IMG/VR virus record: IMGVR_UViG_3300042898_006156
Coordinates: 49,560 to 113,559 of that record
From: a virus
Reading direction: 5' to 3' (one strand)
Length of the DNA stretch: 64,000 nt
The position numbers and the translations under genes were made by a program. Shown here piece after piece: positions 21,153 to 59,206 of this stretch (positions within the stretch are counted from its first letter, which is position 1; each line of letters begins with the position of its first letter). The notes beneath the pieces are model-generated. The model searched no databases and was not told where the DNA came from. It saw nothing but the letters and a program-made list of their open reading frames with translations.

Positions 21153-21181
21153 AAAAAACCCCTCGAAAGAGGGGTTTTTTT
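21153..21181. terminator. Bidirectional rho-independent terminator
   Basis: AAAAAACCCCTC-GAAA-GAGGGGTTTTTT between convergent genes. Confidence 0.9.
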
Positions 21182-21830
21182 ACATCATTGGTAATGGACT
21201 TGCTTTTCTGAAATCTTTGTATATTCTGTTAACTTGTTTTACAAAAGCTTCGTTTCTTGCAGAATTTTCAAAAAAATCTTGATAATCTAAAGCTAATTTG
21301 TCAGCTTTAAACTTCTTCTTATTTTTGAGCAATTCTTTGATTTGACCAATAATTCTTCTGTATACATAACCTTGCTCTCTTTCATCAAGAATAGGCATTT
21401 TTGGACCAGAGGGTTTATTAATAGTAATATCAGTGTTAGAATTACCAGAAGGTGTATCTTCCACATTTTCATTTTTTTCAGGTCTTAAAGTAGGATTATC
21501 TGGATCTATTACAGTTGTAAATTTACCCAATCTATTTCTTTGATCAGTGGCTTTTTCTATAGCTTTATCAATATACTCTCTTTCTTCTTCAGAATATCGG
21601 CCTGGATCATTTTGATACCACTTGACTAAATTTTCAAAATCTTCATTTGGATTTTGAGCCAAAAGAAACAACTCATCCATAAATTTTTCAGGAGTTTTTA
21701 CTTCATTGGATACAATTTGGGATACTTTTAAAAATTGTTTATGAAGCACTTCTGCAGCTTTGAAATCTCCATAAGTTTCTAATAATTCAATATCTTTGTT
21801 GATTTTTGATAACTTTATAAATTTATTCAT
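21180..21830 (-). CDS. Putative virion cargo protein with helical leader
   Basis: 216 aa; leader MNKFIKLSKINKDIELLETYGDFKAAEVLHKQFLKVSQ shared with neighbour. Confidence 0.75.
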   Translation of the reverse strand: MNKFIKLSKINKDIELLETYGDFKAAEVLHKQFLKVSQIVSNEVKTPEKFMDELFLLAQNPNEDFENLVKWYQNDPGRYSEEEREYIDKAIEKATDQRNRLGKFTTVIDPDNPTLRPEKNENVEDTPSGNSNTDITINKPSGPKMPILDEREQGYVYRRIIGQIKELLKNKKKFKADKLALDYQDFFENSARNEAFVKQVNRIYKDFRKASPLPMM

Positions 21831-21832
21831 AA

Positions 21833-22489
21833 TTAACTCTTTGCTACTGATCCACCTTTATTTTTATCAATCATTCCTCTCAATGTATTGCACTGTGCTG
21901 CAAATGGTCCACAATCCATACCATATTCTCGCTGTAATCTTTGCAATTCGTTTTCTAAATATTGCAGTTCTTGATCTTTTTTATTTTTATCACCATACTG
22001 AGTTGGAGGTGGAGTAGGAGGAGGTACATTTTGTCCACCTGGATTTGTATTACTTCCTTCGTAAGGAGGCTGTACTTGTCCACCAGGTGCAGGCGCAGGT
22101 GAAGGTAATGGTGCTATCTGCATATTTCCAGGGCTCGGTTTAGGAGCTGGAGCAGGGCTTGGAGCTGGGCTTACTCCTGGATTTGGTGGGCCTATTGTTT
22201 GAACAGGAGTTGTTCTTGGTTGAGCTACAGGCATTTGTGCAGGTGCAACAACTGGTTTGGCTAGAGTTGTTGGAGCGATCATTGGTCTTGCCATCATTTG
22301 AGGCATCATCATTGGCATCATTTGTGGCATCATCATTTGAGGCATCATTGTGGTCATCATTTGAGGCATTGCATACTGTGCCTCTTTAATAAACTTCTGA
22401 TGTAATATTTCTGCTGCTTTGATTTTGCCAGCATTCTCTAATAATTCGATATCTCTATTTAATTGAGCTAATTTTTGAAATTTGTTCAT
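21833..22489 (-). CDS. Met/Pro/Gln-rich low-complexity putative virion cargo protein with helical leader
   Basis: 218 aa; leader ends FIKEAQ, followed by MPQMM repeats and a Pro-rich region. Confidence 0.75.
   Translation of the reverse strand: MNKFQKLAQLNRDIELLENAGKIKAAEILHQKFIKEAQYAMPQMMTTMMPQMMMPQMMPMMMPQMMARPMIAPTTLAKPVVAPAQMPVAQPRTTPVQTIGPPNPGVSPAPSPAPAPKPSPGNMQIAPLPSPAPAPGGQVQPPYEGSNTNPGGQNVPPPTPPPTQYGDKNKKDQELQYLENELQRLQREYGMDCGPFAAQCNTLRGMIDKNKGGSVAKS
22291..22372 (-). repeat. Imperfect tandem coding repeat (MPQMM units)
   Basis: Repeated GGCATCAT(CAT)TTG(A/T) units on the + strand. Confidence 0.75.
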
Positions 22490-28017: not shown

Positions 28018-30462
28018 ATGGATATTATCAAGCGTAATGGTTCAAGAGAGCCATTGAAATTAGAAAAGATCTCCTCACGTATCAAGAAGCTTACATATGG
28101 CTTGAATGAACGTGTAGACCCAGACATTGTAAGTACCAAAGTTGTTTCTGGTCTTTATGATGGTGTTTCTAGTACCGAACTTGATCAGCTAAGTTCTGAA
28201 ACAGCTGCATCTATGGTCACAGTTCATCCTGACTTTGGTAAACTTGCTGCTCGTATTGCAATTACAGCACTATACAAGGATGTTGAAAAAGACTTCTCAG
28301 TTATAGCAAAGAAGCTTTATGACTACATCAATCCCAAGACTGGTGATAAGGCTGGGATGATTTCTGATGAGGTTTATGCTGTCATTCAGAAGTATTCTCA
28401 AGAATTAGATGCAATGATTGTTCACGATCGAGATTTCAATTTTGATTATTTCGGTTTTATGACATTGCGTAAATCTTATCTCTTGAAGATTGATTCACAA
28501 GCTGCAGAAACTCCACAGCATCTTTATATGCGTGTTGCTGTTGGTATTTGGCGTGAAAATTTGGAGATGGTTCAAAAGACTTACGATATGCTCTCTCAAG
28601 GTCTTTTTACTCACGCTACTCCAACTCTTTTTAATGCTTCAACTAATCGCCCTCAACTTTCATCTTGTTTCTTGCTTGATATTGATGATGATAGCATTCC
28701 TGGAATTTATAAGACAATTTCAGACTGTGCGTTAATTTCTCAATCTGCTGGTGGAATTGGCATCAACATTCACAAGATTCGTGCTAAAGGTAGTTATATT
28801 AAGGGTACTAATGGATATTCTAATGGAATCATCCCTATGCTCAAGGTATTCAATGAGACTGCTAGATACGTTGATCAAGGTGGTGGAAAGCGTAAGGGTT
28901 CAATAGCTGTTTATCTTGAGCCTTGGCATGGTGATATCTTTGATTTTCTTGACTTGAGAAAGAATCAAGGTAAGGAAGAATTACGTGCTAGAGACTTGTT
29001 CTTAGCTATGTGGATTCCTGACTTATTTATGAAGCGTGTTGAAGCTGATGGTGATTGGTCATTATTCTCTCCTGATCAAGTTCCAGGATTGATTGATGCA
29101 TACGATTCTCCAGACAAGAAATCTTTTACTGAGCTTTTTGAGAAGTATGAAGCTGAAGGTAAAGCACTCAAGACTATTAAGGCTCGTGAGTTGTGGGAAA
29201 AGATTTTAGATTCACAAGTTGAAACTGGTACTCCTTATATGCTTTACAAAGATGCGTGTAATTATAAGAGCAATCAGAAGAATCTTGGAACAATCAAATC
29301 TTCAAATTTGTGCACAGAAATTTTAGAATATACGGATAAGAATGAGATTGCCGTATGTAATCTTGCTTCTGTTGCATTGCCTAAATATGTACTTATTCCA
29401 TCTGGCAAAGTTCGTGAGAAGGATAAGAAATTACGTAAATATGACTTTAAATTCTTATATGAAGTTGTTTACCAAGCAACAGTTAATTTGAATCAAGTTA
29501 TTGATGTAAATTTCTACCCAACTCCTGAAACAAAGAATTCAAATAACAAGCATCGTCCAATTGGCTTGGGTGTTCAAGGTTTGGCTGACACCTTTGTTAT
29601 GATGGGTTTACCTTTCGAATCAGATGAAGCAAAGAAATTGAACAAAGATATCTTTGAAACAATTTATTTTGCTGCTCTTACTGCGTCTAAGGATTTGGCA
29701 AAGAAACATGGCTCTTATGCGTCTTTTGAAGGATCTCCAGCATCTCAAGGTTTATTACAATATGACCTATGGGGACTTACTGAAAATGATCTTTCCGGTA
29801 TGTGGAATTTTTCAGCGCTCAAAGAAGAAATCAAGCAATTTGGTTTGAGAAATTCACTTCTTGTTGCTCCAATGCCTACCGCTTCAACAGCACAGATTCT
29901 TGGAAATAATGAGTGTTTCGAGCCTTTTACTACCAATCTCTATAAGCGTAATACGTTGAGTGGTGAATATGCTGTTATCAATAAGCATTTAGTAGAAGAT
30001 CTTGTAAATCTTGGCATCTGGAGTGACAATGTTAGATTGAAGCTATTCAATGAGAATGGTTCAGTTCAAAACATTCCTGAAATTCCTACTGATATCAAAG
30101 AAGTTTATAAGACAGTTTGGGAGATGAAGGGCAAGTCTATTCTTGAAATGGCTCGTGATCGTTCATATTTTATTGATCAATCACAATCATTGAATATGTT
30201 TATGGCTGAACCTACTCCAAGTAAATTATCTTCTGCTCACATGTATGGTTGGAAATTAGGATTGAAGACAGGTATGTACTACCTACGTGTCAAACCTAAA
30301 GCACAAGCATTAAAGGGACTTGGAATTGATCTTTCTAGTGCATCTATCCAAGAGGTAGAAAAACCTAAAGAAGTAGAACAAATGAAGGATTTTAATGCTG
30401 AAGAATTTGCTGCTAAAGTATGTTCTTTATCTGATCCGGATTGTGAAAGCTGCGGAGCATAA
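28018..30462 (+). CDS. nrdA: Ribonucleotide reductase class Ia alpha subunit with ATP cone
   Basis: IIKRNG ATP cone, ATPTLFN, QLSSCFL, SNLCTEI, CNLAS, APMPTAS, KTGMYY, C-terminal CESC. Confidence 0.97.
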   Translation: MDIIKRNGSREPLKLEKISSRIKKLTYGLNERVDPDIVSTKVVSGLYDGVSSTELDQLSSETAASMVTVHPDFGKLAARIAITALYKDVEKDFSVIAKKLYDYINPKTGDKAGMISDEVYAVIQKYSQELDAMIVHDRDFNFDYFGFMTLRKSYLLKIDSQAAETPQHLYMRVAVGIWRENLEMVQKTYDMLSQGLFTHATPTLFNASTNRPQLSSCFLLDIDDDSIPGIYKTISDCALISQSAGGIGINIHKIRAKGSYIKGTNGYSNGIIPMLKVFNETARYVDQGGGKRKGSIAVYLEPWHGDIFDFLDLRKNQGKEELRARDLFLAMWIPDLFMKRVEADGDWSLFSPDQVPGLIDAYDSPDKKSFTELFEKYEAEGKALKTIKARELWEKILDSQVETGTPYMLYKDACNYKSNQKNLGTIKSSNLCTEILEYTDKNEIAVCNLASVALPKYVLIPSGKVREKDKKLRKYDFKFLYEVVYQATVNLNQVIDVNFYPTPETKNSNNKHRPIGLGVQGLADTFVMMGLPFESDEAKKLNKDIFETIYFAALTASKDLAKKHGSYASFEGSPASQGLLQYDLWGLTENDLSGMWNFSALKEEIKQFGLRNSLLVAPMPTASTAQILGNNECFEPFTTNLYKRNTLSGEYAVINKHLVEDLVNLGIWSDNVRLKLFNENGSVQNIPEIPTDIKEVYKTVWEMKGKSILEMARDRSYFIDQSQSLNMFMAEPTPSKLSSAHMYGWKLGLKTGMYYLRVKPKAQALKGLGIDLSSASIQEVEKPKEVEQMKDFNAEEFAAKVCSLSDPDCESCGA

Positions 30463-30493
30463 AAAAAGAGGGGAGAAATCCCCTCTTTTTTTT
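30461..30493. terminator. Bidirectional rho-independent terminator
   Basis: AAAAAAAGAGGGGA-GAAA-TCCCCTCTTTTTTT between convergent genes. Confidence 0.9.
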
Positions 30494-30854
30494 ATTTTGG
30501 TTTATAGTACATAGTTCTGGAAAATGTATCTGTCAAATCATAATCTTTTCTTTTTCCAGCATTATCTACAAATTCATTTCGCTCATAAAATCTTTGAAGT
30601 GCACCCTTTTTGCCTTTCTCAGGTTCAGGGTTTAAAACAATTGGCTTGCTTACTCTTTGGCTATAATCTTTAAGAGCAGTAATTATTTCTGTTCCTATAC
30701 CCATACCTCTCATCTCTTTTGGTATGAATATTTTATCTAATTTGATTTTGTTTTCAAATTCATTGATTCTTAAAACAATTTCTGGATATTTATTCATAAA
30801 AAAATTGATTAATTCTTGAATATCATTTTGATTTTGAGCAAGTCGATACCACAT
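30492..30854 (-). CDS. GNAT-family acetyltransferase with MWY leader
   Basis: LDKIFIPKEMRGMGIGT (motif A), LQRFYERNEF; ATG at 30854 gives MWYRLAQ (track start 30869). Confidence 0.8.
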   Translation of the reverse strand: MWYRLAQNQNDIQELINFFMNKYPEIVLRINEFENKIKLDKIFIPKEMRGMGIGTEIITALKDYSQRVSKPIVLNPEPEKGKKGALQRFYERNEFVDNAGKRKDYDLTDTFSRTMYYKPK

Positions 30855-30855
30855 A

Positions 30856-32790
30856 TTATTTCCTAACAACTTGCGCTTGTTTGGATTTGTAATAATTTAG
30901 TAATTCTTGTTTTTGGGCTTCCGACCATTCATTGAGATTATAAATTCTCATAAAAATAGGTCCTTTAATTTTTATATTGCTGGCCATCAATTTATCTATT
31001 GCCTTTATAGCTGATTGAAAAGTAATTTTTAATTTTGTATTATTTTGAATTAACTTTTCATATTTTTCTTTCAAGCTCATTATTTTAATATATAAATCAT
31101 TTGCAATTTTCTGTTTGACATTTTCTAATGAGTTCTTAGTGAAATTATCTTGCTCTAAAGTTTGATTTATTTTTTGCTTGACAATATTTGGATCTAGCGT
31201 ATAAGCAGTTGAGGCGATTTGATAAGGCGAATGCATACCTTGATATGTTGGTTTGCTTGTTTGTGAAATTTGGAAGTCATATAAGAAAAAATCTTCAGGA
31301 TTATTAAAAGTCAACGGAGGAAAAATTGTCTTAATTAATTGCTGATATATTCTGTCAATATTTGCCTGATCATCAATATACTTAGAATTTTTTGTTGATA
31401 TGGCATTAATAATTTTTTGCCCAATTTCATATTCATATTGATTGGCTAGTACCATTTCATCCAATAAAGAAACTTGTGGTATTTTTTGCAAATCAGATTT
31501 ATTTGGAAAACCTGCAGACATGAAATATCTTACAGCTTCGGGCATTAATTTATTTTTAAAATATCTAAATTCTTTATTGTCAGGAGTGAAATGAAATGGC
31601 ATACCATCATATTTCATCCATTCCATAACTTTTTGACCAATTGATGATTCGTAAATATCCAAATGTTGGTCAATAAAATCTTTAATATTTTTTGGTAAGT
31701 AAAAATTGTTTATAAGTTGATTAATTGGACTTATTTTTTCTCTATCTTTGAAAGTAAAATTTTTATAATTGAAAGAAGATGGATCTTTGGTTTTATCCAA
31801 TGATAAAGATAACCTGTAAAGTGCTAACTCTAATTCATCTTGAGAAACAGGTTCTATACTAAAAAAATATTCATTTTTATTCAAGAATCCTACAATATCA
31901 TTTATTTTTTGTTGATCATTGATTAAATTTTTTGCATATTCGTGTTTGTCACCAGAAAATTTATCTATTGCATTTTGAAATGCCCCAACTAAAGTACTCA
32001 ATCTTCTTGATTTAAGGTTCGTAGTTGTATCAGATTTAGATAATTGACCTTTTTGCTTCAAAGAATCAAATTTTATATCAGAACCAAAATCTTTAAAGCT
32101 GCTAGGATTTTTTTTGACTTCTTGTCTTACAATATCTAACAACTGATTTTGTCTGATATTTTGCTCAGAAGTTTCTGGGAATCTATACTCAAACCCCATC
32201 AATGATAATATTTCGTAACCTTCAGCAAATGCCTCGAACTTATTCGTTTTTGCGTAGCCAGTTGGAGCCATTCTTTGATATTTCTTCATGTCTTGATTAC
32301 TACGATCTAGTCGTGTTGATTTATCAATAGCGTGTCCAATCTCATGATTTAATGAAGACATAATATAATCGAAATTAATAAATATTTTATCACTTGTGGG
32401 TTCATACAAACCTGTCCAAGGCAAGTTTTTATTAATACCTATGTTAGTTAAAACTGTGCCTCCGCCTTCTTTGCCCACATTTATATCAAGACCCTTTGAA
32501 GCAATAGTGTTTAAGGCTCCTTTAGGGTATAATGCAAAAACATTCATTACAGTAGAAAAAATTTCATTGATTTGAGATTGAACTAAATTTTTAAATGTTT
32601 CCAAAGTTAACTTAGATTTTGATTCTGTTTGTAGTTTTGAATCACCACCAGGTAAACTTTGATATATATTAACAGTTGGATACTCAGGCAATCCATTAGA
32701 AGTCAAAGTACTTTTCAAAGAAATTTTTAAAAAATTTCCTTCTTGGGTAATATTATAGTTAAATTTATTCTGAGCTGTTTTGTACCACAT
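30856..32790 (-). CDS. Putative virion cargo protein with zincin (lethal-factor-like) metallopeptidase domain and MWY leader
   Basis: MWYKTAQ; GLYEP...LNHEIGHAID...YAKTNKFEAFAEGY. Confidence 0.75.
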   Translation of the reverse strand: MWYKTAQNKFNYNITQEGNFLKISLKSTLTSNGLPEYPTVNIYQSLPGGDSKLQTESKSKLTLETFKNLVQSQINEIFSTVMNVFALYPKGALNTIASKGLDINVGKEGGGTVLTNIGINKNLPWTGLYEPTSDKIFINFDYIMSSLNHEIGHAIDKSTRLDRSNQDMKKYQRMAPTGYAKTNKFEAFAEGYEILSLMGFEYRFPETSEQNIRQNQLLDIVRQEVKKNPSSFKDFGSDIKFDSLKQKGQLSKSDTTTNLKSRRLSTLVGAFQNAIDKFSGDKHEYAKNLINDQQKINDIVGFLNKNEYFFSIEPVSQDELELALYRLSLSLDKTKDPSSFNYKNFTFKDREKISPINQLINNFYLPKNIKDFIDQHLDIYESSIGQKVMEWMKYDGMPFHFTPDNKEFRYFKNKLMPEAVRYFMSAGFPNKSDLQKIPQVSLLDEMVLANQYEYEIGQKIINAISTKNSKYIDDQANIDRIYQQLIKTIFPPLTFNNPEDFFLYDFQISQTSKPTYQGMHSPYQIASTAYTLDPNIVKQKINQTLEQDNFTKNSLENVKQKIANDLYIKIMSLKEKYEKLIQNNTKLKITFQSAIKAIDKLMASNIKIKGPIFMRIYNLNEWSEAQKQELLNYYKSKQAQVVRK

Positions 32791-32828
32791 ACCTTTCTTT
32801 TTACTTCAAAAACGGGTAAAATCCTTGT

Positions 32829-33146
32829 ATGGCAAAATCAGTAGTTAGAGAAGTAAAAATTTTAGATGCAGTATTGAAAGAAGATGAAGGCACTGAAGAT
32901 GAGCCTACAATTGTTCAATTTATTTGGCTTCAACTTCAAGATGTAAAGTCTGAAAGAGTATATACTGCTGTGTTATCACTGGAAGATATTAAAGATTTGA
33001 CAAAGATGGATCGTTATTTAGAAGGTCGTGAACTGATAAATTTCAGCATTGCTCTTAAGAATCGTGAGCATCCATTGTCTCTTATATTTAATCCAGAAGA
33101 CCAAGAGATTACTGTAGATATGATTAAGAATGAGGAAGGTATTTAA
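32829..33146 (+). CDS. Hypothetical protein
   Basis: 105-aa ORF; TAAAAT 6 nt upstream of ATG. Confidence 0.7.
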   Translation: MAKSVVREVKILDAVLKEDEGTEDEPTIVQFIWLQLQDVKSERVYTAVLSLEDIKDLTKMDRYLEGRELINFSIALKNREHPLSLIFNPEDQEITVDMIKNEEGI

Positions 33147-35948: not shown

Positions 35949-36638
35949 ATGGCAACCGAAGATTTCAGAATAGTCAGAATAGTAAATAGAGCTAAAGCAG
36001 GAAACCAAGCAGCATTTAAAAAGTTGCTTAAGATGGTAGAACCAGATCTCAAGAAGATTGCACCACACTTTTTCATAGTCGGCGGAGACAGAGAAGATGT
36101 AATGCAAGAATTGAGATTAGGTGTATTTAAAGCGGTAAATTCCTACGATTGCACTAAAGACACAACATTTAAGAACTTTTGCGTAAATTTAGTTTGTAAA
36201 AGACATCTTGCAACAGCTATAGCGTCAGCGAAAAGAATGAAGAATTCAGCTTTGAATGATTCTATTTCGCTAGACGCTCCTTTTATTTTAAATGATGATG
36301 GTAATTTCCATTCATTAGGAGACTATATTCCTGATAAGAAAAATCCTTATGATGAATCTCCAGAAGTAAATTTAGTTGAAGATATTATTGTTAGACAAGA
36401 ATTAGAATTAAATTCAGAAATGTTGATGGATAAACTCACTTCATTAGAAGCAGACATTTTTGTTGAATATGGTCACAATTCATCATACAAAGAAATTTCT
36501 CACACCTTGAATGTTCCAGCTAAATGTGTTGACAATGCACTCACTAGAATTAGAAAAAAAGCATCTGAGGTTTATGTTCAATTCAAAGATGATGAGAACA
36601 ATGATGCTACTCATAAGAAGCCAAAAGGTAGATCATGA
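35949..36638 (+). CDS. sigH: sigmaH (Spo0H)-like RNA polymerase sigma factor
   Basis: FFIVGGDREDVMQE, FKNFCVNLVCKRHLATAIASAKRMKNSALNDSISLDAP, LTSLE, SYKEIS, KCVDNALTRIRKK closely follow SigH (YFLIGADREDIVQE...KSIDNALQRVKRK); ATG 35949 with GGGAG RBS (track start 35931). Confidence 0.9.
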   Translation: MATEDFRIVRIVNRAKAGNQAAFKKLLKMVEPDLKKIAPHFFIVGGDREDVMQELRLGVFKAVNSYDCTKDTTFKNFCVNLVCKRHLATAIASAKRMKNSALNDSISLDAPFILNDDGNFHSLGDYIPDKKNPYDESPEVNLVEDIIVRQELELNSEMLMDKLTSLEADIFVEYGHNSSYKEISHTLNVPAKCVDNALTRIRKKASEVYVQFKDDENNDATHKKPKGRS

Positions 36639-37267
36639 TAAACTTTCTTCGCACAGCATCTGTTTTGGATATCTTAGGATGCTTCAAACTTGCAGATAAA
36701 TTTACCAAAGTAGCAATTGATTCTTCTGATTTGGATTTTGATCAGGTATATAAAAATCCTCAGACATTTTCTGATTTTGCCTTAACCAGAGCTAGAAAAG
36801 AAGGCAAAGATCCTATTGAAGTTTTAGGTGATGATAACTTCACTTTTGATCGTTCAAAAGATCCTTTAGAACAAATTTCTGACAAACATAAAGGCACAAG
36901 AAAACATTTTGAGCTTTATCCTCAAATTTTATTATTTCCTGAAAGTGGTGTTTGGAAATTTTTCTTTATGGATCCTTTGTCATTTAAGGCATTATCAAGA
37001 GGGTCTGATAAAGAAGGTAAACTAATTACAGATCAATTGTCTATTCCTGGTTTAGAAGAATTATATAGTGATGAAGAAGATGCAGAAGAAATTCATCATG
37101 AGGTTGTTTTCACCACTAATTTACCATTAGAAGATTACAGCAAAGACGAAGCTATAAGTAGAATAAGACAAAAATTCCCTGATGCCCACATTGATTATCA
37201 AATGAATGGTGTGGATGACAGGGAATTTTTTGATGAAGAAAAAGATATAGATTTATCTTCTTCTTAA
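36635..37267 (+). CDS. Acidic protein with short helical leader (putative virion cargo)
   Basis: MINFLRTASVLDILGCFKLADKFTKVA leader. Confidence 0.7.
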   Translation: MINFLRTASVLDILGCFKLADKFTKVAIDSSDLDFDQVYKNPQTFSDFALTRARKEGKDPIEVLGDDNFTFDRSKDPLEQISDKHKGTRKHFELYPQILLFPESGVWKFFFMDPLSFKALSRGSDKEGKLITDQLSIPGLEELYSDEEDAEEIHHEVVFTTNLPLEDYSKDEAISRIRQKFPDAHIDYQMNGVDDREFFDEEKDIDLSSS

Positions 37268-38887: not shown

Positions 38888-38914
38888 TACTTATTTATAA
38901 AACTTAATACCTAT
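38888..38914 (-). promoter_or_regulatory. Putative late promoter ATAGG-N18-AGTA
   Basis: Variant of AAGG-N18-AGAA, 9 nt before ATG 38878. Confidence 0.45.
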
Positions 38915-41628
38915 CCTAAACTTTTTCTAAAATTATAAACTTTAGCAGTTTTATCTTCATCTCTCTCTATAGAAAGATCAACTTGTGTTTCATCTTGTTC
39001 AGCATCATCAAATCCTGGAAAATTGCCCGGTGGTCTTCCTGGTCCTTTAAATCTAGGAATAATGACATCAATTTTTCTACCACTAGGAATTGGTTCTGTC
39101 TGCTGTATTTGGAATCTTGAGTGTCCCTTGATATCTTGAGCTGTTGGAGGATCTTGTGTCTTTTTAGCTTGTTCTCTTAATTGCTCATTTTCTTTTCTTC
39201 TATCTTCGCCTTCTGGATTTACAATGTCTGTAGTAAGCAATCCGTTAGCCACAGCTTCTGCAATCTTTGAATAATAATCAGACATATATCCTTCAACTAC
39301 AGCTTCAGATACATCTTTAACATCAAAGATTAACATTTTTCCAGATTCTATTAATTGGGTTTCTACTTCTTTTAATTCTTTTTCAAGATCTGTTCTTTCA
39401 CGAGAATAAATAGGAGTAGACTGTATTTGTTGTAATAATTGATTTTTCCTACCAATCAAGCCTCTTCTGTAATCTCTTCTGCCTTGTATTTGAAATGTTT
39501 CGTGAAAAATCATCTCAAGTCTATTTCTTTGACGTTGTAATTTTTTATTAATTGCTTCAAGTGGGTCTGTTAATTTTATGGTTTGACCAGAATCAGATGT
39601 GAAAGTACCAAATCTTCCAGCTTCCATGTCTGCAAGTAATCTTGTAGCATTGGTTCCACCTGACATTAAGTGAACCATCTCATCCTGAATATCTAAAATC
39701 CATTGTTCTTTTGCAGCATTATAGATTTTTCTATCAGACATCAAGTTACCAATATGAGCATCAAATATTTTTGAAAGATAAGGAATGTCTCCGTGGATTC
39801 TTGCATAAAGCTCTGATGGATTAGAGATATATGCTTCTTCTGGTGTCAATTCTGGATTTAATGCAATAGAATCTTGCATCGTCAAATCACCAGACTGTAA
39901 ATATTGCAATGCGTGAGCAACTTCGTGTCTTCTGGTAGCTTCAACATAATTTTCAGCATCCATACCAATGTTTTCTGCTAAAGCTTTATGATAAGAAAGT
40001 TGATTCCATATGTCAGTTTTAATTAAGATAGCTGGTACTGGGCCTCTATCTTTAGTTGGAAATCTTGGGACAAATAATCCACCCCATTTTTCATCAATCA
40101 AATCTACAGGACCAATTTTCATTTTTGGAGCATTATTTTCTTGCATAAAGTTTTGTAAGCTCCAAGTGCTAAATTCTATGATTACCATCTGATCAGCATA
40201 TGTTTTGATGTCTTTTATGCTTGTTCCAGCAAAGGGTGCTTCTTGCATCATACGATCTTCATAGGATTGATATATTTTTCCAAAAATTTCGTCAGATTTA
40301 TTTTTTTGTCTAATTCCGCTTTCTGACATACCTTCTGGAACTACTTCATTTTTAGGTCCTTTTCCATATGCATAGTTGAAAGAACTATCTGATGCTTTAG
40401 TAATTTTAATTACACCCTGTTTTGCAGCTTTTTCCAATAAAGCTAAACCGTCAGATTGAATTTTTGCTTTGGCTGCAGTTCCACGAGCAATGATTTTATT
40501 TTTAATCTCATCACCCAAACTGCTCAAAAGATTTATATTAAATTTATCAAAATCTTCTGGGTTTTTTTCCAAATACCTTATGATGACTTCAGGCTTTGCA
40601 ATTCCCTTTATTATATACATAGGTGTGCAATCATCACCTAGCGAATCAATATAAGCAATAAATTTTTTACTTCTTTTAAGTTTTCCAATTAGCAAAGGAT
40701 TGTTGTCTAGTTCATATGAATTAATTACGTTATATAATCTTTTGACTAAAGGTGTTACGAATTCATCATACTGGGTATATTGTTCTAAATTAGTAAGTGT
40801 GTCAACTAAAGACTCTGTAGGTAAGCCCATAACCATGCTAACAACATCTTTTTGTTCTATATCAGATTGATTTAATATCTGAATAATCATATTTAAAATT
40901 TGAGGTGGATCAATTCCTGAAAAAAGAAAACTCTTTAATAGGGGCAGATAATTCTTTATTTCTCCACTCCAAATTGTAGTAATTGCAGCATCGTAACTCT
41001 CAAACTTTTCCAATTCAGGTTTCTGTTGTTTTAATTGTTCTATCAATAAATTTCTTTGTTCAGAATCGGGTATTCCCAGTAATGCTTTGTCATCACCACG
41101 CATCATAAATAAAGAGAGAGAATCACTTATTTCAGTGCCTTTTCTAACTAATAAATTAAGTGTCGTAAATCCAATACCTAAAGTAGAATTGACATATGCT
41201 TTTGCTTTTTCAGCATCAGGAATTTCGTCTCCTAATTTATTTCCTTTATGTCCTTGAGATTTTGAAAAACTATTTAATTTTCCCAAAAAATCTAGAACTT
41301 TCATCATATCTGTATTGGCAGAACTACCTTGTTTTTTCATTTCATTATCAATAAATTTTGATAATCCGCTAGTAAAATTGATTATATCTGCCATAGCATT
41401 AACATCTGTTGTAGCTTTTTCAAAATATTTATCAATAATAGAATCATTATTTTTGCCTTTTTCTATGTCAAATAACAACTTAAGCATAGCAGTCATAGTA
41501 GGCATATTATTTGGGCTGTAAAATGAAAAATCTTTGAATGTTCTAGAAAAAGAGCCACTCCAAACAACTTCTTTAGTTGAAAGGACATCCCAGGCAGTTG
41601 CTGATTCGATAATTTTTGAGTACCACAT
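38911..41628 (-). CDS. Large putative virion cargo protein with zincin metallopeptidase domain and MWY leader
   Basis: MWYSKIIESA; WGGLF...TRRHEVAHALQ...YISNPSELYAR. Confidence 0.75.
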   Translation of the reverse strand: MWYSKIIESATAWDVLSTKEVVWSGSFSRTFKDFSFYSPNNMPTMTAMLKLLFDIEKGKNNDSIIDKYFEKATTDVNAMADIINFTSGLSKFIDNEMKKQGSSANTDMMKVLDFLGKLNSFSKSQGHKGNKLGDEIPDAEKAKAYVNSTLGIGFTTLNLLVRKGTEISDSLSLFMMRGDDKALLGIPDSEQRNLLIEQLKQQKPELEKFESYDAAITTIWSGEIKNYLPLLKSFLFSGIDPPQILNMIIQILNQSDIEQKDVVSMVMGLPTESLVDTLTNLEQYTQYDEFVTPLVKRLYNVINSYELDNNPLLIGKLKRSKKFIAYIDSLGDDCTPMYIIKGIAKPEVIIRYLEKNPEDFDKFNINLLSSLGDEIKNKIIARGTAAKAKIQSDGLALLEKAAKQGVIKITKASDSSFNYAYGKGPKNEVVPEGMSESGIRQKNKSDEIFGKIYQSYEDRMMQEAPFAGTSIKDIKTYADQMVIIEFSTWSLQNFMQENNAPKMKIGPVDLIDEKWGGLFVPRFPTKDRGPVPAILIKTDIWNQLSYHKALAENIGMDAENYVEATRRHEVAHALQYLQSGDLTMQDSIALNPELTPEEAYISNPSELYARIHGDIPYLSKIFDAHIGNLMSDRKIYNAAKEQWILDIQDEMVHLMSGGTNATRLLADMEAGRFGTFTSDSGQTIKLTDPLEAINKKLQRQRNRLEMIFHETFQIQGRRDYRRGLIGRKNQLLQQIQSTPIYSRERTDLEKELKEVETQLIESGKMLIFDVKDVSEAVVEGYMSDYYSKIAEAVANGLLTTDIVNPEGEDRRKENEQLREQAKKTQDPPTAQDIKGHSRFQIQQTEPIPSGRKIDVIIPRFKGPGRPPGNFPGFDDAEQDETQVDLSIERDEDKTAKVYNFRKSLG

Positions 41629-46285: not shown

Positions 46286-46966
46286 ATGGAATCAAAAAAA
46301 GAAACTGTAGATGCACTCATTGTTCCTGATGAAGGACCAAAGAAAGCATCTAAAATGTTCAGGGATTTGAAAGAAGGGGACAAACCATTAGCGCCTCTTC
46401 CCCCTGATAATATGAGTGATATATCTTATCCTCAATTTATGGAACCAAGATGCGCAATTTGTACTTCACCTTTCAGAGATTTGGTAGAACACGTATATCT
46501 TGATTCTGGACGTAAAAATCAATCAGTAATTAGATTCTTCCTACAGTATTTTGATGCACAGATGAACTGGATGCAGATTAATACTCACATGGAACAACAC
46601 TGTGATTTCAAAAAAATCTCAACTTCAGGTCTTAAAAATTATGAGCAAAGGGAAGAACTTATTGCTCCTTGGATTTTTCGTGAACATCATCTTGCCTTGA
46701 CTGCATTACTTGTAGAACTTGATGATGTAAGAGGAATTGACTGCTCTAAAAACAATGATATGAAGCTTAAAAGAGCAGCAATGGTAGAAAAGTTAATTTC
46801 TAAAATCTTACATCTTAAAGAAGTAAGAGATAATCAAGGTATTTATAATATCAACATTTTCGAAATTCTTGCTAAATTGCACGAAAAGATGGATTCTGAA
46901 AATGATAAAAGAATTATTAGAGAAGAAATTGTTGCTTTAAGAGAAAAGATCCAACAAGATAATTAA
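46286..46966 (+). CDS. Putative terminase small subunit
   Basis: Directly upstream of TerL; EPRCAIC...H...H zinc/HTH-like N-domain, helical C-terminus; ATG 46286 (track start 46265). Confidence 0.65.
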   Translation: MESKKETVDALIVPDEGPKKASKMFRDLKEGDKPLAPLPPDNMSDISYPQFMEPRCAICTSPFRDLVEHVYLDSGRKNQSVIRFFLQYFDAQMNWMQINTHMEQHCDFKKISTSGLKNYEQREELIAPWIFREHHLALTALLVELDDVRGIDCSKNNDMKLKRAAMVEKLISKILHLKEVRDNQGIYNINIFEILAKLHEKMDSENDKRIIREEIVALREKIQQDN

Positions 46967-49077
46967 TGAGAAAACAAACACAAGTTCCTAAATCTCCAAC
47001 AGAATTAAGAAACCAATTACTTCAACAAGCCAATACAGTAACAGAATTATTTAAGGGTACTGAATATGCAGATGATTTTGTTGACGAAATTGCTCCTGCC
47101 ACAAGATCAGAAGTCGCTCCTCCATTAAAGCCACCTAAAGACAGATTTAATCCTGATCAAATTGTAGATATTATTACATTTATCGAACATCCCTATTTTT
47201 GTAATCTAAGACCTTATCCTTGGCAAAAACTTATATTAAAGTGTTTTTATATGGGACAAGAAGGCAATACTAATCTTGTAATCAATGAATCTGATAATCA
47301 AGAAGATTGCAAGGGGTGTGTTTGGGATTATGTTCAAAAGAATGAGAATGAATTTTTAAAATCTCGTTCAGAAAGTAAGCAATTTAAAACAATTTTTAAT
47401 GTTGTTAATTCTCCTTGTTTGCAATGTAAGCGTCTTGATAATAATGTTAGAGAAGAAAGATATAAATATGCCAAAGACGAAGCTACAAACCCTGATGCAG
47501 AAAGACAAGTAGAAGTATTAGAAGCAAGACCAATTATTGATGGTTTTCAAAGTGAGTTTGATTTACTTTATTCTGAAGAATTTGATCCAAAATTGAGAAT
47601 GCAAGTTCAAGAGAAATGCACTAAAAGATATAAATTTGAAGAATTAGTTTTAGTACTTGGCAGACGTTCAGGAAAATCATTCCTAGTGTCTGCTATGGCT
47701 CTTTATGAATTATATAGATTGATTTCTATGGGACATCCTCAAGCAAGATATGGTTTGATGGAATTTGATGAAGTTGTTATTCTCAACGTTGCTCGTAATG
47801 AAGAACAGGCTAAAAAAGCAATCTTCTCAAAAATCAAGCAAACAGTTTTAGCTTCTCCATTTTTTGCACCTTATATTGGCAAAGATACAGAGCTTGAAAT
47901 GAGATTCTACACTGAACACGACCGGGAAGAGAATGTAAGAAGAAAAGAGCAAAATATCAATCTTTTTGCGGGTTCTTTAGTATTACGATGTGGTTCTAGT
48001 AATGCTTCAGGTCTCGTTGGTTTAACTTGTTGGACAATTATTATGGACGAAGTTGCAGCAATGGCAGGAGACAATCCTGAATCTGGTGTTGACTATGCTC
48101 TTTATGATGATTTGAAGCCATCTCTTGCTACATTTGGTAAAGACGGAAAGATGATGCTTCTTTCCAACCCCAAAGGTCCTCTTGGGTTACTTTATGATTT
48201 GCACGAGAATAGACAAGAAGATCCTACTACACTTGTTATGAGACTACCAACTTGGCTTACTAATCCAAACATTGATAAAGAATGGTTAGACGGTCAAAAG
48301 AAAAAAGATCCTCAAGAATTTCAAATGCAATATGGTGCAGAGTTTGGTGCATCATCATCTGACCCAATGTTCAATGTTGAAGATGTTGACAGAATGTTCT
48401 CTTCAATGTCTATGGTGAAAAGAAAAGAACAAGCAGAAGGACATTTTGAATATTTTTGTCATTTAGATCCTGCAAGAACTTCAGATTATTACGCCCTTGT
48501 TATTGCTCATACAGAAAATATGTATGGTCAAATTGGTCCTGATTTTCAGCCATTAAAAAGAGTTGTTATTGATCACATTCATTTTTGGAATCCAAGAACA
48601 AAAAATCAACCCGTTAAAGAAAAAGATGTTGAAGATTATGTAATTGAATTGCATAGAAAGTTTAAATTTAAACAAGTAAGCATTGATCAATGGAATTCTC
48701 AATCCTCTCTTATAACTTTACAATCACGAAGAATTCCTATCGTAGAACGTCAATTCAATAAAGAATATAAAGAGAAAATTTATACCGAACTTTCTCAACT
48801 AGTTCGAGATGACCGAATTGATATTTATGATTTATCTGGTGGTGAATATCGAGATTTAGATCACAGATTGATATCTTTGAATGAGATTCAAGAAGCTAAA
48901 ATTCAGTTTTTGTTTTTACAAAAGAAGTGGAAAGGTAAAAGATATTACATTGAAGCTCTATCAGGTTACAAAGACGATATTTGTGATGCTGTAGCTGCTG
49001 TTGCTTACGAATGTCTTACTTCAAAAATTATGATTAGATTACCAAGATCAAAAATGGTCAATCTAAATAGGCGATAA
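46966..49077 (+). CDS. terL: Terminase large subunit
   Basis: PYPWQ, VLGRRSGKS (Walker A), IIMDEVA (Walker B), LSNP, YGAEF, HLDPA (RNase H-like), DQWNS, KDDICDAVA. Confidence 0.93.
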   Translation: MRKQTQVPKSPTELRNQLLQQANTVTELFKGTEYADDFVDEIAPATRSEVAPPLKPPKDRFNPDQIVDIITFIEHPYFCNLRPYPWQKLILKCFYMGQEGNTNLVINESDNQEDCKGCVWDYVQKNENEFLKSRSESKQFKTIFNVVNSPCLQCKRLDNNVREERYKYAKDEATNPDAERQVEVLEARPIIDGFQSEFDLLYSEEFDPKLRMQVQEKCTKRYKFEELVLVLGRRSGKSFLVSAMALYELYRLISMGHPQARYGLMEFDEVVILNVARNEEQAKKAIFSKIKQTVLASPFFAPYIGKDTELEMRFYTEHDREENVRRKEQNINLFAGSLVLRCGSSNASGLVGLTCWTIIMDEVAAMAGDNPESGVDYALYDDLKPSLATFGKDGKMMLLSNPKGPLGLLYDLHENRQEDPTTLVMRLPTWLTNPNIDKEWLDGQKKKDPQEFQMQYGAEFGASSSDPMFNVEDVDRMFSSMSMVKRKEQAEGHFEYFCHLDPARTSDYYALVIAHTENMYGQIGPDFQPLKRVVIDHIHFWNPRTKNQPVKEKDVEDYVIELHRKFKFKQVSIDQWNSQSSLITLQSRRIPIVERQFNKEYKEKIYTELSQLVRDDRIDIYDLSGGEYRDLDHRLISLNEIQEAKIQFLFLQKKWKGKRYYIEALSGYKDDICDAVAAVAYECLTSKIMIRLPRSKMVNLNRR

Positions 49078-49102
49078 AGGTTATTTTTTTAAATAATAAG
49101 AA
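49076..49102 (+). promoter_or_regulatory. Putative late promoter AAAGG-N18-AGAA
   Basis: Exact motif 9 nt before ATG 49112. Confidence 0.65.
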
Positions 49103-49111
49103 CAAATCATT

Positions 49112-50104
49112 ATGTCTAACAATATCAGAACAGCTCAATTTGGTGGTGTAGGCGGCGGGGGAAATGGCTCTGCTTTTCAGCCTGGTGGTAGCCCTTTAGG
49201 TCGTGGTGGATCTAATAGGGGTGGTCACGAGATTAACATTTATGTTGATGAAGATGCTAGTTTTGATAAATTATTAAGAAGAACCCATATTGAGCCTGAT
49301 AATAGAGATGTAAATATTGAGTCGAGACTTACTCCTCAGCACAAACATTATGAAGAGATGATTCCATATGAATTAACTCCTGAAGAAAGAATGAGAGCTA
49401 AATTTAGAGCTCAACTTCATAATTATAAAAACTCACTTGAAAATGCTGCAAACAGTTTGATGAAAAATAGTCCAGCTTACATAAAAGAACATTATCATCC
49501 TAAAGCTGAACATATGATGACTATGGAGCAATCTTTAGAAGATCGTCATAAATATAATAAAGACTTCAAATATCCAAGAGAAGAATACAAAGATCCTGAT
49601 AAACCAGAAAGATTACATTTTGCTATTTCGGATCAAGCTATGAACCGTGTAGCTGAAGATTATGCAGTTAGAAGAAGAAACAGACTTACTGATGAATATC
49701 CAGAAGATAGGAATGAGTTTGATGAAAAACAATTTTCATATGCTCCTATTGGCAAAACACCAATCTTAATTCAAGGTGAAGATATTGATATTTATATGCA
49801 AGACTTGATGTCTGTTAATACTCCTGATCACGATGGATTTCAGGAATATGAGCTTAAGGATACTGTTTTAACCTATCCTGAGCCAGATGGTAAAGCAAAT
49901 GTACACGCTCCAAAAGATATTGCACCAGAACCAGAAGAAATGAAAGATGTTAATGTTTTTATGTCTTTAGAAGGTCAAATGCATCCAAACAAGAAATTCA
50001 CCACTTACCTTGATTACAACGATCAATCCTTAAAAGAAGACAAAGGTGTAGAGGAAGTTTATGATGGTTCCGCATTTTATGGAATTAGCGGTCATAGTTT
50101 GTAA
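49112..50104 (+). CDS. Head-region protein (RTAQ site, Gly-rich N-terminus)
   Basis: MSNNIRTAQFGGVGGGG; ExQL-like motifs. Confidence 0.75.
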   Translation: MSNNIRTAQFGGVGGGGNGSAFQPGGSPLGRGGSNRGGHEINIYVDEDASFDKLLRRTHIEPDNRDVNIESRLTPQHKHYEEMIPYELTPEERMRAKFRAQLHNYKNSLENAANSLMKNSPAYIKEHYHPKAEHMMTMEQSLEDRHKYNKDFKYPREEYKDPDKPERLHFAISDQAMNRVAEDYAVRRRNRLTDEYPEDRNEFDEKQFSYAPIGKTPILIQGEDIDIYMQDLMSVNTPDHDGFQEYELKDTVLTYPEPDGKANVHAPKDIAPEPEEMKDVNVFMSLEGQMHPNKKFTTYLDYNDQSLKEDKGVEEVYDGSAFYGISGHSL

Positions 50105-50138: not shown

Positions 50139-50597
50139 ATGAAAGCAAATTCAATCCAAACAATAATCAAGCTTTGTTCAAGATTAGACAAAACAGGCCA
50201 CTATTCTAAAGCTGATCTTTTGTTTGAAAAAATTGCTCAATACTATCCCCAACAATCAGTAACTCAATCGCCAAATGTATCTTTAGTTCCCTATGAAGAC
50301 ATTGAAGAAGAAACCAAGCAAAATGATTTCTGGCGACAAAAAATTAATCCAAGAAAAATTCCAAAAGAATATTTTGACTTGGGTGGAGAAGCTGATGGAC
50401 AAAGTATCGAAGGTCAACTACATGGTCCTGACAATGTTCCAGGGCCAGCATATATTGATCCAGGTAATCCAGCATCAAGCCCCTCAATGGCAGTTCACAG
50501 TGGAGAAGATTTGTGCGATAAATTTTCCTGGGAAGAAACATATGAGAAAAATGTTGATGAAGGGAATGCTTGGAAAAACAGAATACCATACAGATAA
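50139..50597 (+). CDS. Head-region protein with helical leader
   Basis: MKANSIQTIIKLCSRLDKTGHYSKADLLFEKIAQ; AAAGG-N18-ACAA upstream at 50103-50129. Confidence 0.75.
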   Translation: MKANSIQTIIKLCSRLDKTGHYSKADLLFEKIAQYYPQQSVTQSPNVSLVPYEDIEEETKQNDFWRQKINPRKIPKEYFDLGGEADGQSIEGQLHGPDNVPGPAYIDPGNPASSPSMAVHSGEDLCDKFSWEETYEKNVDEGNAWKNRIPYR

Positions 50598-51492: not shown

Positions 51493-51519
51493 AAAGGAAT
51501 TTGAGCATTAAATTTAGAA
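51493..51519 (+). promoter_or_regulatory. Putative late promoter AAAGG-N18-AGAA
   Basis: Exact motif upstream of 51560. Confidence 0.65.
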
Positions 51520-54539: not shown

Positions 54540-56201
54540 ATGGACAAGGGATATAAAATCAAAGCTACATACGAGACTCACGATCCTAAAAAAATTCAAG
54601 ACATTATGGATAAAAAACCATTAGTCGGCGGAACTGGATTACTTAGTATGCTTCAAGACACAATTGCTGGACTTGGAGATGGTGATTCTACGCCAATGTC
54701 TTCTCCTTTTCACGTTTTAGATATGAATGATTTTGGTGATGATCCAGTAATTTCAGCTTTTAAAAATATGGGTGGACCAGAAAATATCGTAAAGATTGTC
54801 GCCCTTCCTGGAAAAGAAGCACATCATCATTTGCATCACGCTTTTAATAAATTGAATAATATAAAATTAGCAGAAGAAAGAAATACTCTTCGTTATGCAT
54901 ATATGGCTTTGCAAAACTTTTTAAACAAGAATAATGAAGCAGCCAGATTAGAAAGAGTAGCATACAAATCAACAGATAAATCTGCTGGATATTGGCAAAT
55001 CGAAGCCATCAATTCTTTGGATAAACTCAAGAAATTTGCATCCACTTCCTTGAGAATTTCTAAACTTGAAAGTGCTAGAAATGTTGTTTTATCAGGAAAC
55101 AAATTACAAACTACTAAAGTATCAAACTATTTACATAATTGGTATTCAGAAATCACACCAAAAGAAAATAGAAGAGTAGCTTACACAACATTATCAACAC
55201 AAGCAAATGAGCCTTATTTACTTTGCCCTAAAGGTAAATTTCAAGGATATAAATCTCCAATCCCTATGGAAATTTCAAAATGCCGTGAGAACTGTATTGA
55301 CTCCAGAGTTGATAAAGAAGGACACGTTACTTGTGCATATCAAGATTGGCTCAAAGTAGCTTTCCAATCACATGATGAAGTTATGGCAAGATTAGATGTT
55401 CATAAACATCCAGATAATGAAGCTAATGCCCTTGAGCTTAAAGAAGGCGAAAGATCCAAGAAACTTACTGAAGGTGAAATTGGATTCGAAGCTAGATTTG
55501 AAAATTCAGATAGAGGCGCTAATAAAATCAGAGGCAAGCAAAATGTCGATGATTCTAGAGAAAAACAATTATCAGATGCCAAACAATCAAGCTATGGTCA
55601 TCAACAAGGCGATAAGCCAGTTATGCGCCCAAAACAAGCTCAATCTGACACTAATAAGACAATCGATTCACAATTACCAAGAAAAGATCAAAAAGGCACA
55701 GATTACCTTGAAATGCTTTTGAGGAAATTGAATGATAAAGAATCTGTAACAGATGAAGTTAGAGAAAATCAACTTGATTCTGATGGTCTTTACAATCATC
55801 GTGGTGAGATGGAAGAATCTTATGCTGATCAATTAAATGTGAAGGGTAAAGATCCAATCAATTACAGAGATGAATTGAATAAGAATAAAAATGAGCCAAA
55901 AGATTCTATTATTCATCAATTAGATAAAAATATTACTGCTTCTAAAAAAGAAATGAATCAAGAACAAATTCTCAATGAAACCAGAAAGAAAAATGTTGTT
56001 GATGTATCTAGAGACAAGCAATTAGAAGACAGAAGACAAAATACAAAAATTACCAAAAATATTGAAGCGCTTTTAGATGCTGAAGATGAAGACAGTATAG
56101 GTCATCATTTTTCAGAAGAAGATCTCAAAAGATTTGCTGATGAACTTGGTTTAGACTACATTATGGAATCTAAAAGAGAAGAATACGACGATGTGGTATA
56201 A
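54540..56201 (+). CDS. Head-region protein with Cys cluster and ExQL repeats
   Basis: LCPKG...KCRENCID...TCAY; repeated SREKQL/VRENQL/SRDKQL motifs. Confidence 0.75.
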   Translation: MDKGYKIKATYETHDPKKIQDIMDKKPLVGGTGLLSMLQDTIAGLGDGDSTPMSSPFHVLDMNDFGDDPVISAFKNMGGPENIVKIVALPGKEAHHHLHHAFNKLNNIKLAEERNTLRYAYMALQNFLNKNNEAARLERVAYKSTDKSAGYWQIEAINSLDKLKKFASTSLRISKLESARNVVLSGNKLQTTKVSNYLHNWYSEITPKENRRVAYTTLSTQANEPYLLCPKGKFQGYKSPIPMEISKCRENCIDSRVDKEGHVTCAYQDWLKVAFQSHDEVMARLDVHKHPDNEANALELKEGERSKKLTEGEIGFEARFENSDRGANKIRGKQNVDDSREKQLSDAKQSSYGHQQGDKPVMRPKQAQSDTNKTIDSQLPRKDQKGTDYLEMLLRKLNDKESVTDEVRENQLDSDGLYNHRGEMEESYADQLNVKGKDPINYRDELNKNKNEPKDSIIHQLDKNITASKKEMNQEQILNETRKKNVVDVSRDKQLEDRRQNTKITKNIEALLDAEDEDSIGHHFSEEDLKRFADELGLDYIMESKREEYDDVV

Positions 56202-56724
56202 GCAAGTTTTGGCCCAATTTGGTGGTGGTGTTAATTTTTCAGAAGAAGAAAAAGTTGATTCTCAAAACAATTCTGAAATTTACAACATTAGAGATGTAGA
56301 CAACGAACCTGCTGGATTATATGATGAATTGTCAGGCATTCTTGAAAAAATGGGCAAAACACTTGATGAATATTACAGTATGAATCAAATTCAACAAAAA
56401 GAAATTTGGGATTTACTTGTTGATCGTCCTCACAGAATGACCATGGATAACACTGGAAATTTTATCAAGTCTCCACAATCCGCATCGAATGAAGCACGTA
56501 GACATTCTCCGTTTCACGAGAATCCAGAAGAAACAACCTTAGAAGAACAACTTAGAGGATCTCAACAAGAAAATAATAATAGAGATCCACAAAGTATGGC
56601 TTCTACAGAAAAAGGTAATAGTTTTCAACATTTCAAGAATGGAGAAGGATATTATCAAGCACTAAAAGGCAAGCAAGATCCTATCCTTTTTGGAAACAAA
56701 CCTTCTAATCAAACTTGGTATTAA
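56191..56724 (+). CDS. Head-region protein with MWY leader
   Basis: MWYKQVLAQFGGG; TTLEEQL. Confidence 0.75.
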   Translation: MWYKQVLAQFGGGVNFSEEEKVDSQNNSEIYNIRDVDNEPAGLYDELSGILEKMGKTLDEYYSMNQIQQKEIWDLLVDRPHRMTMDNTGNFIKSPQSASNEARRHSPFHENPEETTLEEQLRGSQQENNNRDPQSMASTEKGNSFQHFKNGEGYYQALKGKQDPILFGNKPSNQTWY

Positions 56725-59179: not shown

Positions 59180-59206
59180 ACAGGTTTTAATATGTTAAAA
59201 ATAGAA
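59180..59206 (+). promoter_or_regulatory. Putative late promoter ACAGG-N18-AGAA
   Basis: Immediately after the terminator, upstream of the protease gene. Confidence 0.65.

Follow-up and report, generated by a model that had tools for sequence, protein, structure and literature searches.

Why do unrelated genes of one virus begin with the same few amino acids? This question is raised by a window of 64,000 nucleotides (the whole stretch of DNA analyzed here, ~33% G+C), which corresponds to bases 49560-113559 of the 113.6-kb IMG/VR virus record IMGVR_UViG_3300042898_006156, with a completeness of 32% by CheckV estimate. We analyzed the genes whose products start with Met-Trp-Tyr (MWY), drawn from a set of open reading frames (ORFs) that counts 141 genes for the record as a whole, 61 of them within the window. 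The results show that the tag formed by these residues and the few that follow, MWY[KR]x[A/S], is real and non-random, almost exclusively N-terminal, portable, and conserved. As to its role, we infer that it serves as a label by which exchangeable enzymes that manipulate the host are brought into the virus head, a reading to which we give about an even chance of being right. The tagged genes of the window, together with one head-module gene, are:

30492-30854, minus strand: 120-residue GNAT-like protein starting MWYRLAQ (translation; Pfam GNAT families), with tag codons at 30834-30854
30856-32790, minus strand: 644-residue zincin-like protein starting MWYKTAQ, with HEIGH at residue 149 and tag codons at 32770-32790
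38911-41628, minus strand: 905-residue protein with the atypical tag MWYSKIIESA and HEVAH at residue 568 (translation, motif)
56191-56724, plus strand: 177-residue portal-adjacent protein starting MWYKQVLAQFGGG, ending 34 nt before the portal gene
49112-50104, plus strand: 330-residue head-module protein starting MSNNIRTAQFGG, which shares AQFGG with the protein encoded at 56191 (translation)

Translation confirmed that four ORFs of the window begin with MWY, as the initial annotation had stated, and that the 56191 and 49112 products both continue AQFGG. Three more MWY starts (MWYNRTILAA, MWYRKAQ, and MWYKLAQ) lie outside the window in the same record, such that MWY heads 4 of the 61 window ORFs and 7 of the 141 record ORFs. 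Among the latter, Trp at position 2 is always followed by Tyr, and the WY..A motif has zero internal occurrences in the record's proteins. Starts of this kind could come from chance, from wrongly called start codons, or from a translation signal at the nucleotide level. Chance had been thought unlikely from the outset, and indeed the composition (W 1.2%, Y 4.2%) predicts ~0.03 MWY starts in 61 genes vs. the 4 observed. As for the start codons, an upstream ATG is possible in some gene calls (L002, L004, G003), but the ATG at 32790 is preceded by an in-frame stop 7 codons upstream, with no other start codon in between, and the MWY start is kept among homologues, in nine of the 10 full-length homologues of the 644-residue protein (as MWYR[IL]AQ, at 32-96% identity) and in 39 of the 40 homologues of a tagged ADP-ribosyltransferase (ART) family. 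Finally, the tag codons vary synonymously (Tyr as TAT 24 times and TAC 18 times; K/R as AAA, AGA, CGA, and AGG; Ala as GCT and GCA), and Shine-Dalgarno-like sites precede tagged genes at the same rate as other genes. We therefore rejected a nucleotide-level signal and conclude that selection at the tag acts on the peptide, not on the nucleotides. Together with the reversed controls given below, these results effectively refute chance and miscalled starts.

The phage belongs to an uncultured clade of jumbo phages that are relatives of phage G and are found in lakes and freshwater, since 69 related loci in IMG/VR carry portals 49-98% identical to its own, on contigs of up to 358 kb. Searching the full proteome and the relatives showed the tag to be far more widespread than initially noted, with 10-15 MWY starts in each of three relatives of 300-358 kb. 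Matches to ATGTGGTAYARR number 9-12 in each of these three genomes, vs. 0-1 in the reversed control, and all of them head long ORFs. The 42 MWY proteins of four genomes fall into 26 families that are mutually unrelated by BLAST, and their 42 tags share a clear logo: M, W, and Y are followed by K/R (38 of 42), any residue, and Ala (29) or Ser (6). Position 7 is Gln in 14 tags, Ile in 9, Lys in 5, and Ala in 4, with Val also common, and there is no conservation beyond it. WY[KR]x[AS] was found 35 times at the N terminus and truly internally only ~5 times in 340,000 residues. A few variants offset WY by one to four extra residues (MSWY, MSPWY, MRRSWY, MLRSWY). In an IMG/VR-wide scan, MWYKxAQ occurred at 52 loci, of which ~42 are true ORF starts, some of them on contigs that reach 479 kb and have a G+C content of 39-44%.

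The sequence behind the tag is polar: residues 8-40 have a hydrophobicity of 0.35 in tagged proteins vs. 0.42 in other genes (p = 1e-7), as exemplified by the ART family (MWYKLAQQLQLPGLDVEQSQPKSKEK...) and by the portal-adjacent protein (MWYKQVLAQFGGG...). These residues being less hydrophobic than in other genes, with no hydrophobic run after the tag, the tag does not have the makeup of a Sec or Tat signal peptide. In AlphaFold2 models of the GNAT-like and 644-residue proteins, residues 1-8 have a predicted local distance difference test (pLDDT) score below 50 and lie ahead of the first confident element, which in the GNAT-like protein is a helix of residues 10-22. The tag is thus modeled as an exposed, unanchored appendage.

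One of the carriers, and the likely original one, is the portal-adjacent gene, which does lie just before the portal, as the initial annotation had it. It belongs to a head module that also contains the large terminase and a prohead protease:

46966-49077: large terminase
56758-59121, plus strand: portal with a C-terminal DUF559/REase-like domain (Pfam Portal_Mu, MTES_1575, and DUF559; phrog_16240)
59247-63383, plus strand: 1378-residue prohead protease with presumed scaffold, N terminus MYKVAKGG (phrog_18299 at residues 82-242)

The MWY start of the portal-adjacent gene is kept in 55 related loci, with the body down to ~21-35% identity, and the protein has only four invariant columns, of which M1, W2, and Y3 make up three. 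The gene is translationally coupled to its neighbors. In loci where the portal is 49-59% identical, it starts with MSWY[KR]LAKDY or MSWWKFSKDY, and in G004, a relative that is 99% complete and whose portal is 49% identical, it is the sole tagged gene (MSWYRLAKDY). Because only the portal-adjacent gene is tagged in G004 and in the distant relatives, the tag probably originated there, on a head-module protein, and was passed to other genes afterwards. The remaining tagged genes are dispersed, only one of all abutting the portal. A complex prediction for the portal (787 residues, 26-row alignment) with the 177-residue MWY protein scored 0.00, which speaks neither for nor against binding.

A portable, exposed peptide would fit equally well with a docking of the tagged proteins to some other shared partner, be it a common chaperone or inhibitor that silences the enzymes in the producing cell, a hub of the tail or baseplate, or a phage-made compartment. 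The oldest carrier, however, is a head-module gene coupled to its neighbors just before the portal, and the tag resembles the N terminus of the prohead protease (see below). Attachment to the tail would moreover make little sense for ART, Nudix, GNAT, and J-domain enzymes. We consider docking outside the capsid unlikely, if worth keeping in mind.

Another use of an exposed N terminus would be as a degradation signal that limits the lifetime of potentially harmful enzymes via Clp-type proteases. Trp and Tyr are destabilizing residues of the ClpS type under the N-end rule, ClpP is encoded in G001 (G001:C1:206392-206925), G003 (G003:C1:294202-294627), and G004 (G004:C1:324810-325346), and G004 also encodes a ClpS-like adaptor (272550-272723). 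Yet methionine aminopeptidase leaves Met in place before Trp, such that the first residue is Met and not the Leu, Phe, Trp, or Tyr that ClpS takes, and the offset variants put WY at varying distances from the end. In addition, ClpS was found only in G004, where just one gene is tagged, and a degradation signal would leave the conservation on the head-module protein unexplained. We regard this explanation as improbable.

What, then, does the tag sit on? By Pfam, the tagged bodies include GNAT, PcfJ-like (E = 1.4e-13), ART-PolyVal (above the cut-off in two proteins of one BLAST family), NUDIX, NUDIX with HAD_SAK_2, DnaJ, InPase (E = 9.5e-45), AAA_33 kinase, and NlpC/P60 domains, as well as a weak match to LPD26. 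Most tagged proteins have one recognizable domain, and only the NUDIX+HAD_SAK_2 protein has two. Regarding the enzymes of the window, the GNAT label given to the 30492-30854 product was borne out, with a score of 20.8 for Acetyltransf_1 (cut-off 20.7) and a fold search in which all the hits listed have the GNAT fold, including AcrVA5 (template-modeling score ~0.5-0.65, E ~1e-3; model of moderate quality, pLDDT 69). The two zincin labels stood in part. In the 644-residue protein, H149, E150, and H153 of HEIGH are nearly invariant in 13 homologues, E186 downstream is conserved, and Atlas leads to ATLF/IrrE-type peptidases; on the other hand, the protein has no Pfam match, and the fold search with its model (pLDDT 60) brought up zincins such as PPEP-1 only as weak rows, with no match reaching E <= 0.001. 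For the 905-residue protein, the label has the single HEVAH motif as its whole basis, and neither a profile search nor Atlas found a family, except for an LPD23 lead in Atlas (0.81). Its tag is also atypical in having Ser at position 4; the orthologues in G001 and L223 start MWYSRIIESA, and that in G002 starts MWNYKRSKRIVEAA (MWNYKRSK).

Tagged genes often stand in tandem with overlapping stop and start codons. At G001:C1:225735-229228, five MWY genes follow each other on one strand with overlapping or abutting stops and starts, an array resembling a polyvalent protein whose parts have been split up and tagged one by one. The GNAT-like and zincin-like genes of the window occupy a slot between a gene ending at 30462 and a gene starting at 32829, in which the set of MWY genes differs among nearly identical genomes:

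window 30462-32829, L196:864-3177, and L223:10618-13007: MWY cassette slot, in loci whose portals are 91-93% identical to that of the window
30461-30492: bidirectional terminator-like hairpin closing the minus-strand MWY operon (sequence)

This slot looks like an accessory-gene hot spot closed by the bidirectional terminator. Such exchange, and the tandem arrangement, would also be expected if the common gene starts were a by-product of cassette exchange at a short recombination junction at the 5' end, the peptide itself being functionless. But the conserved stretch is just 18-21 nt long and its codons vary synonymously, the DNA upstream of the tag is not conserved, and the tag is kept even where bodies are only 32-39% identical, which together make a functionless junction very improbable.

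In one case, another leader stands in place of the tag. The protein P0011 shares the zincin body of the 644-residue protein (36% identity, E = 1e-42) and starts with another leader, MKSFLKISQKLDQSGHYKLSDKL. This second leader, of ~30 residues, is helical (..K[IL]AQxLDxxGxYxxAD..) and is found on other unrelated proteins as well:

21833-22489, 21180-21830, 50139-50597, and 36635-37267 of the window, and protein P0011: genes with the second leader

Both leader classes have in common a start of the form aromatic-x-K-L-A-Q. Since the zincin body of P0011 carries the helical leader instead of MWY, the sequences suggest that the two leaders serve the same purpose. In the ART family, no leader swap was found among the 40 homologues.

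A motif of the form AGG-N18-AGAA precedes head genes, likely structural genes, leader-bearing genes, and several very large genes; its gene-proximal sites number 7 and 13 with the 18-nt spacer, vs. 0-3 with spacers of 16, 17, 19, and 20 nt. The sites in the window are:

59182-59206, plus strand: exact AGG-N18-AGAA before the protease-scaffold gene
49078-49102: exact AGG-N18-AGAA before the gene at 49112
51495-51519: another exact AGG-N18-AGAA
63432-63456: another exact AGG-N18-AGAA
2900-2924, minus strand: another exact AGG-N18-AGAA
41639-41663, minus strand: AGG-N18-AAAA (one mismatch), 10 nt before the ATG at 41628, with the same arrangement before the G001 orthologue

When a relaxed form of the motif was searched in front of operon-first genes, it was found for 9 of 20 tagged genes vs. 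43 of 561 others (Fisher p = 1.5e-5). No sigma-70-like sites were found directly upstream of the MWY operons of the window, the counts being at or below shuffled expectation, and the gene at 32790 has no AGG-N18-AGAA-type site at the correct spacing. AGG-N18-AGAA is a candidate promoter for a phage-encoded sigma factor.

If tagged proteins enter the head, the prohead protease might act on them. In the 1378-residue fusion, the prohead protease covers residues 52-244, and ~1100 further residues form the presumed scaffold. The pattern [KR]-x-A-[QS] occurs at six sites (residues 32, 306, 553, 775, 970, and 1147), each of which 18-30 of 30 orthologues retain, with variation between K and R, at x, and between Q and S; with 7.3 occurrences per protein vs. 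1.9 expected, the pattern is 3.9 times over-represented. Spaced ~175-275 residues apart, these six are candidate self-processing sites. The K/R at position 4 and the Ala at position 6 of the tag coincide with P3 and P1 of this motif. Moreover, the fusion itself begins with MY[KR]VAKGG in the tag-rich clade, compared with MIKRGISGG in the distant clade; apart from the tagged proteins, no other of 1657 ORF starts fits M-(x)-Y-[KR]-x-A. Genome-wide, [KR]xA[QS] reaches 1.6-2.5 times the shuffled level, which is suggestive only, because the pattern is also helix-friendly. The initial annotation had proposed cleavage between Ala and Gln of the tag. What stood of this is the match of [KR]-x-A to P3-P1 of the scaffold motif, whereas Gln occupies position 7 in only 14 of the 42 tags. 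Cleavage of every tag at the bond after Ala appears doubtful, because Ile and Lys after the tag Ala are unlike the scaffold motif, and removal of the tag by the prohead protease is a tentative proposal that we would sooner expect to fail than to hold.

Based on these observations, we propose the following model of capsid loading. A tag of six to seven residues would have arisen on a small, largely disordered protein encoded beside the portal, and would then have been copied onto many stand-alone enzymes of effector type. The exposed tag, with a linker-like polar region behind it in many of the proteins, would dock its protein inside the assembling prohead, for instance on the scaffold, the protease, the portal, or the capsid interior. 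The enzymes would be packed into the head together with the DNA and reach the next host cell with it, in the manner of a polyvalent protein in separately tagged pieces. WY may act as the docking determinant and [KR]-x-A as P3-P1 of a prohead-protease site that releases the cargo later. Docking, encapsidation, ejection, and cleavage are all steps that we infer. The loading itself is favored because the tag is ancestral on a head-module gene adjoining the portal, because the bodies are effector-type domains known from polyvalent proteins, because tagged genes and head genes have the promoter-like motif in common, and because a homologous zincin body carries the other leader class. The initial description of the tag as a minimal capsid-targeting peptide agrees with what was found insofar as it is an N-terminal tag on unrelated proteins, about the size of the T4 signal, while the case for capsid targeting is circumstantial. 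A fuller version, in which the tag is a two-part loading code (WY for docking and [KR]-x-A for release), interchangeable with the helical leader and used clade-wide to put 10-15 swappable solo effectors into each virion, is a possibility that we put forward with some reserve.

Several points weigh against capsid loading or against parts of it. The tag and the clade are known here from sequences alone. The receptor of the tag may lie outside the head, and a J-domain protein or a kinase could equally work inside the producing cell. With respect to cleavage, K-x-A-Q is also a common helix-forming pattern, the residue after the tag Ala is variable, and two of the residues found there, Ile and Lys, never follow Ala in the scaffold motif. 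The leader swap amounts to one case. As for the promoter-like motif, around half of the operon-first tagged genes, including that at 32790, do without it; its position-weight matrix was partly built from tagged genes, the regular-expression comparison being independent of this; and the idea that it marks late genes comes solely from the genes that lie downstream of it.

We found no published description of an MWY tag in the literature on such motifs or on capsid targeting in huge phages, and neither the multi-omics study of phage G nor the comparative study of jumbo phages mentions an N-terminal tag. Phage proteins that are injected determine how an infection goes in its first minutes, and head cargo is predictable only for T4, P1, N4, and the phiKZ group. 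Should the tag indeed direct loading, one could read from sequence which proteins a large clade of uncultured lake jumbo phages injects, and these would include ADP-ribosyltransferases, acetyltransferases, Nudix and HAD enzymes, peptidases, a J-domain protein, and a cell-wall hydrolase. This would be a modular alternative to the multi-domain strategy of polyvalent proteins, and foreign proteins might be loaded into these large capsids by means of the same six residues. The model predicts neo-N-termini at residue 7 of MWY proteins in viral-fraction metaproteomes.

Some further observations concern the portal, phage G, and the host. Residues 658-775 of the portal form a DUF559/REase_MTES_1575 nuclease-like domain, which follows a Gly/Pro-rich linker and is retained in relatives down to 49% identity. 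Bacillus phage G, the nearest cultured phage although a distant relative, has a portal (gp14) that is 29% identical and shorter (649 residues), the alignment covering residues 1-486 only; its protease domain (gp19) is 38% identical, and its capsid protein gp27 is 49% identical to the orthologue in G001 (40446-41300). In the phage G record (L150, 4754-18253), the small head-module ORFs gp5, gp9, gp10, gp17, and gp20 start with xxR[LI]KK, and gp10 reads MKKSRLKKVSFDGGGG, resembling MWYKQVLAQFGGG of the portal-adjacent protein; by their sequence, these starts may represent a different tag in the same use. In the record studied here, outside the window, the ORF at L151:9180-10145 begins with MKKAFTLIELLVVIAIIAILAAILFPVFAQ, which we take to be a prepilin-type N terminus typical of Planctomycetota/Verrucomicrobiota proteins and a possible hint at the host.

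How does the MWY tag compare with known ways of loading a capsid? In encapsulins and in the HK97 protease, too, a short terminal peptide (the cargo-loading peptide and the targeting tail, respectively) docks cargo to the inner face of a shell of the HK97 fold, as MWY may do. These peptides are usually C-terminal and their sequences are unlike MWY. The closer parallel is found in T4, in the capsid targeting sequence (CTS) that the internal proteins IPI-III carry and in the Alt propeptide. The T4 CTS has 10 residues and the Alt propeptide 7 (PMC9026906), and MWY is likewise a very short peptide at the extreme N terminus, its conservation ending at position 7. As in T4, the peptide is common to unrelated proteins of one phage, here seven in the record and 26 families in four genomes, and the MWY carriers can be likened to the CTS carriers, which are fast-evolving, non-essential, and include an ADP-ribosyltransferase (PMC9026906). 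The front part of the T4 peptide targets and its rear part is a protease site, which the proposed two-part reading of MWY[KR]xA would parallel, and the T4 protease gp21, proposed to enter the prohead through its CTS-like end (PMC9026906), has a counterpart in the tag-like MY[KR]VAKGG of the fusion. The differences are that MKTYQEFIAE and MWY[KR]xA have no sequence similarity and the logo here lacks an L/I-x-E site, that T4 cleaves after Glu and this phage possibly after Ala, and that this phage belongs to a G-like lineage, whose capsid protein is small and of HK97 type and whose protease is fused to the presumed scaffold. Cargo families are also more numerous here (at least 26), and the evidence for the present tag is purely one of sequence.

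Jumbo phages of the phiKZ/SPN3US type resemble the proposed arrangement in that their heads carry many internal proteins that are processed by the prohead protease and ejected, but their propeptides are longer, without a uniform tag, and both the cleavage motif and the lineage are different (PMC10052503, PMC7411985). With respect to the cargo itself, a comparison can be made with the polyvalent proteins of phages and conjugative elements; those of phages, some of which are fusions with MuF or portal, are predicted to be packaged in the capsid and injected (Iyer et al. 2017, PMC5512222). Several families of tagged bodies were defined from such proteins, and the likeness extends to ART-PolyVal, InPase, PcfJ, NlpC/P60, and putative zincin-type peptidases, perhaps to the portal-fused effector domains described in PMC5512222 (the portal here having a nuclease-like tail), and to the predicted delivery with the DNA, as proposed for the MWY cargo. 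Yet polyvalent proteins string 2-15 domains on one polypeptide, often anchored by MuF or portal (PMC5512222), whereas in the phage studied here most domains are found singly, on small proteins that bear an MWY tag of their own.

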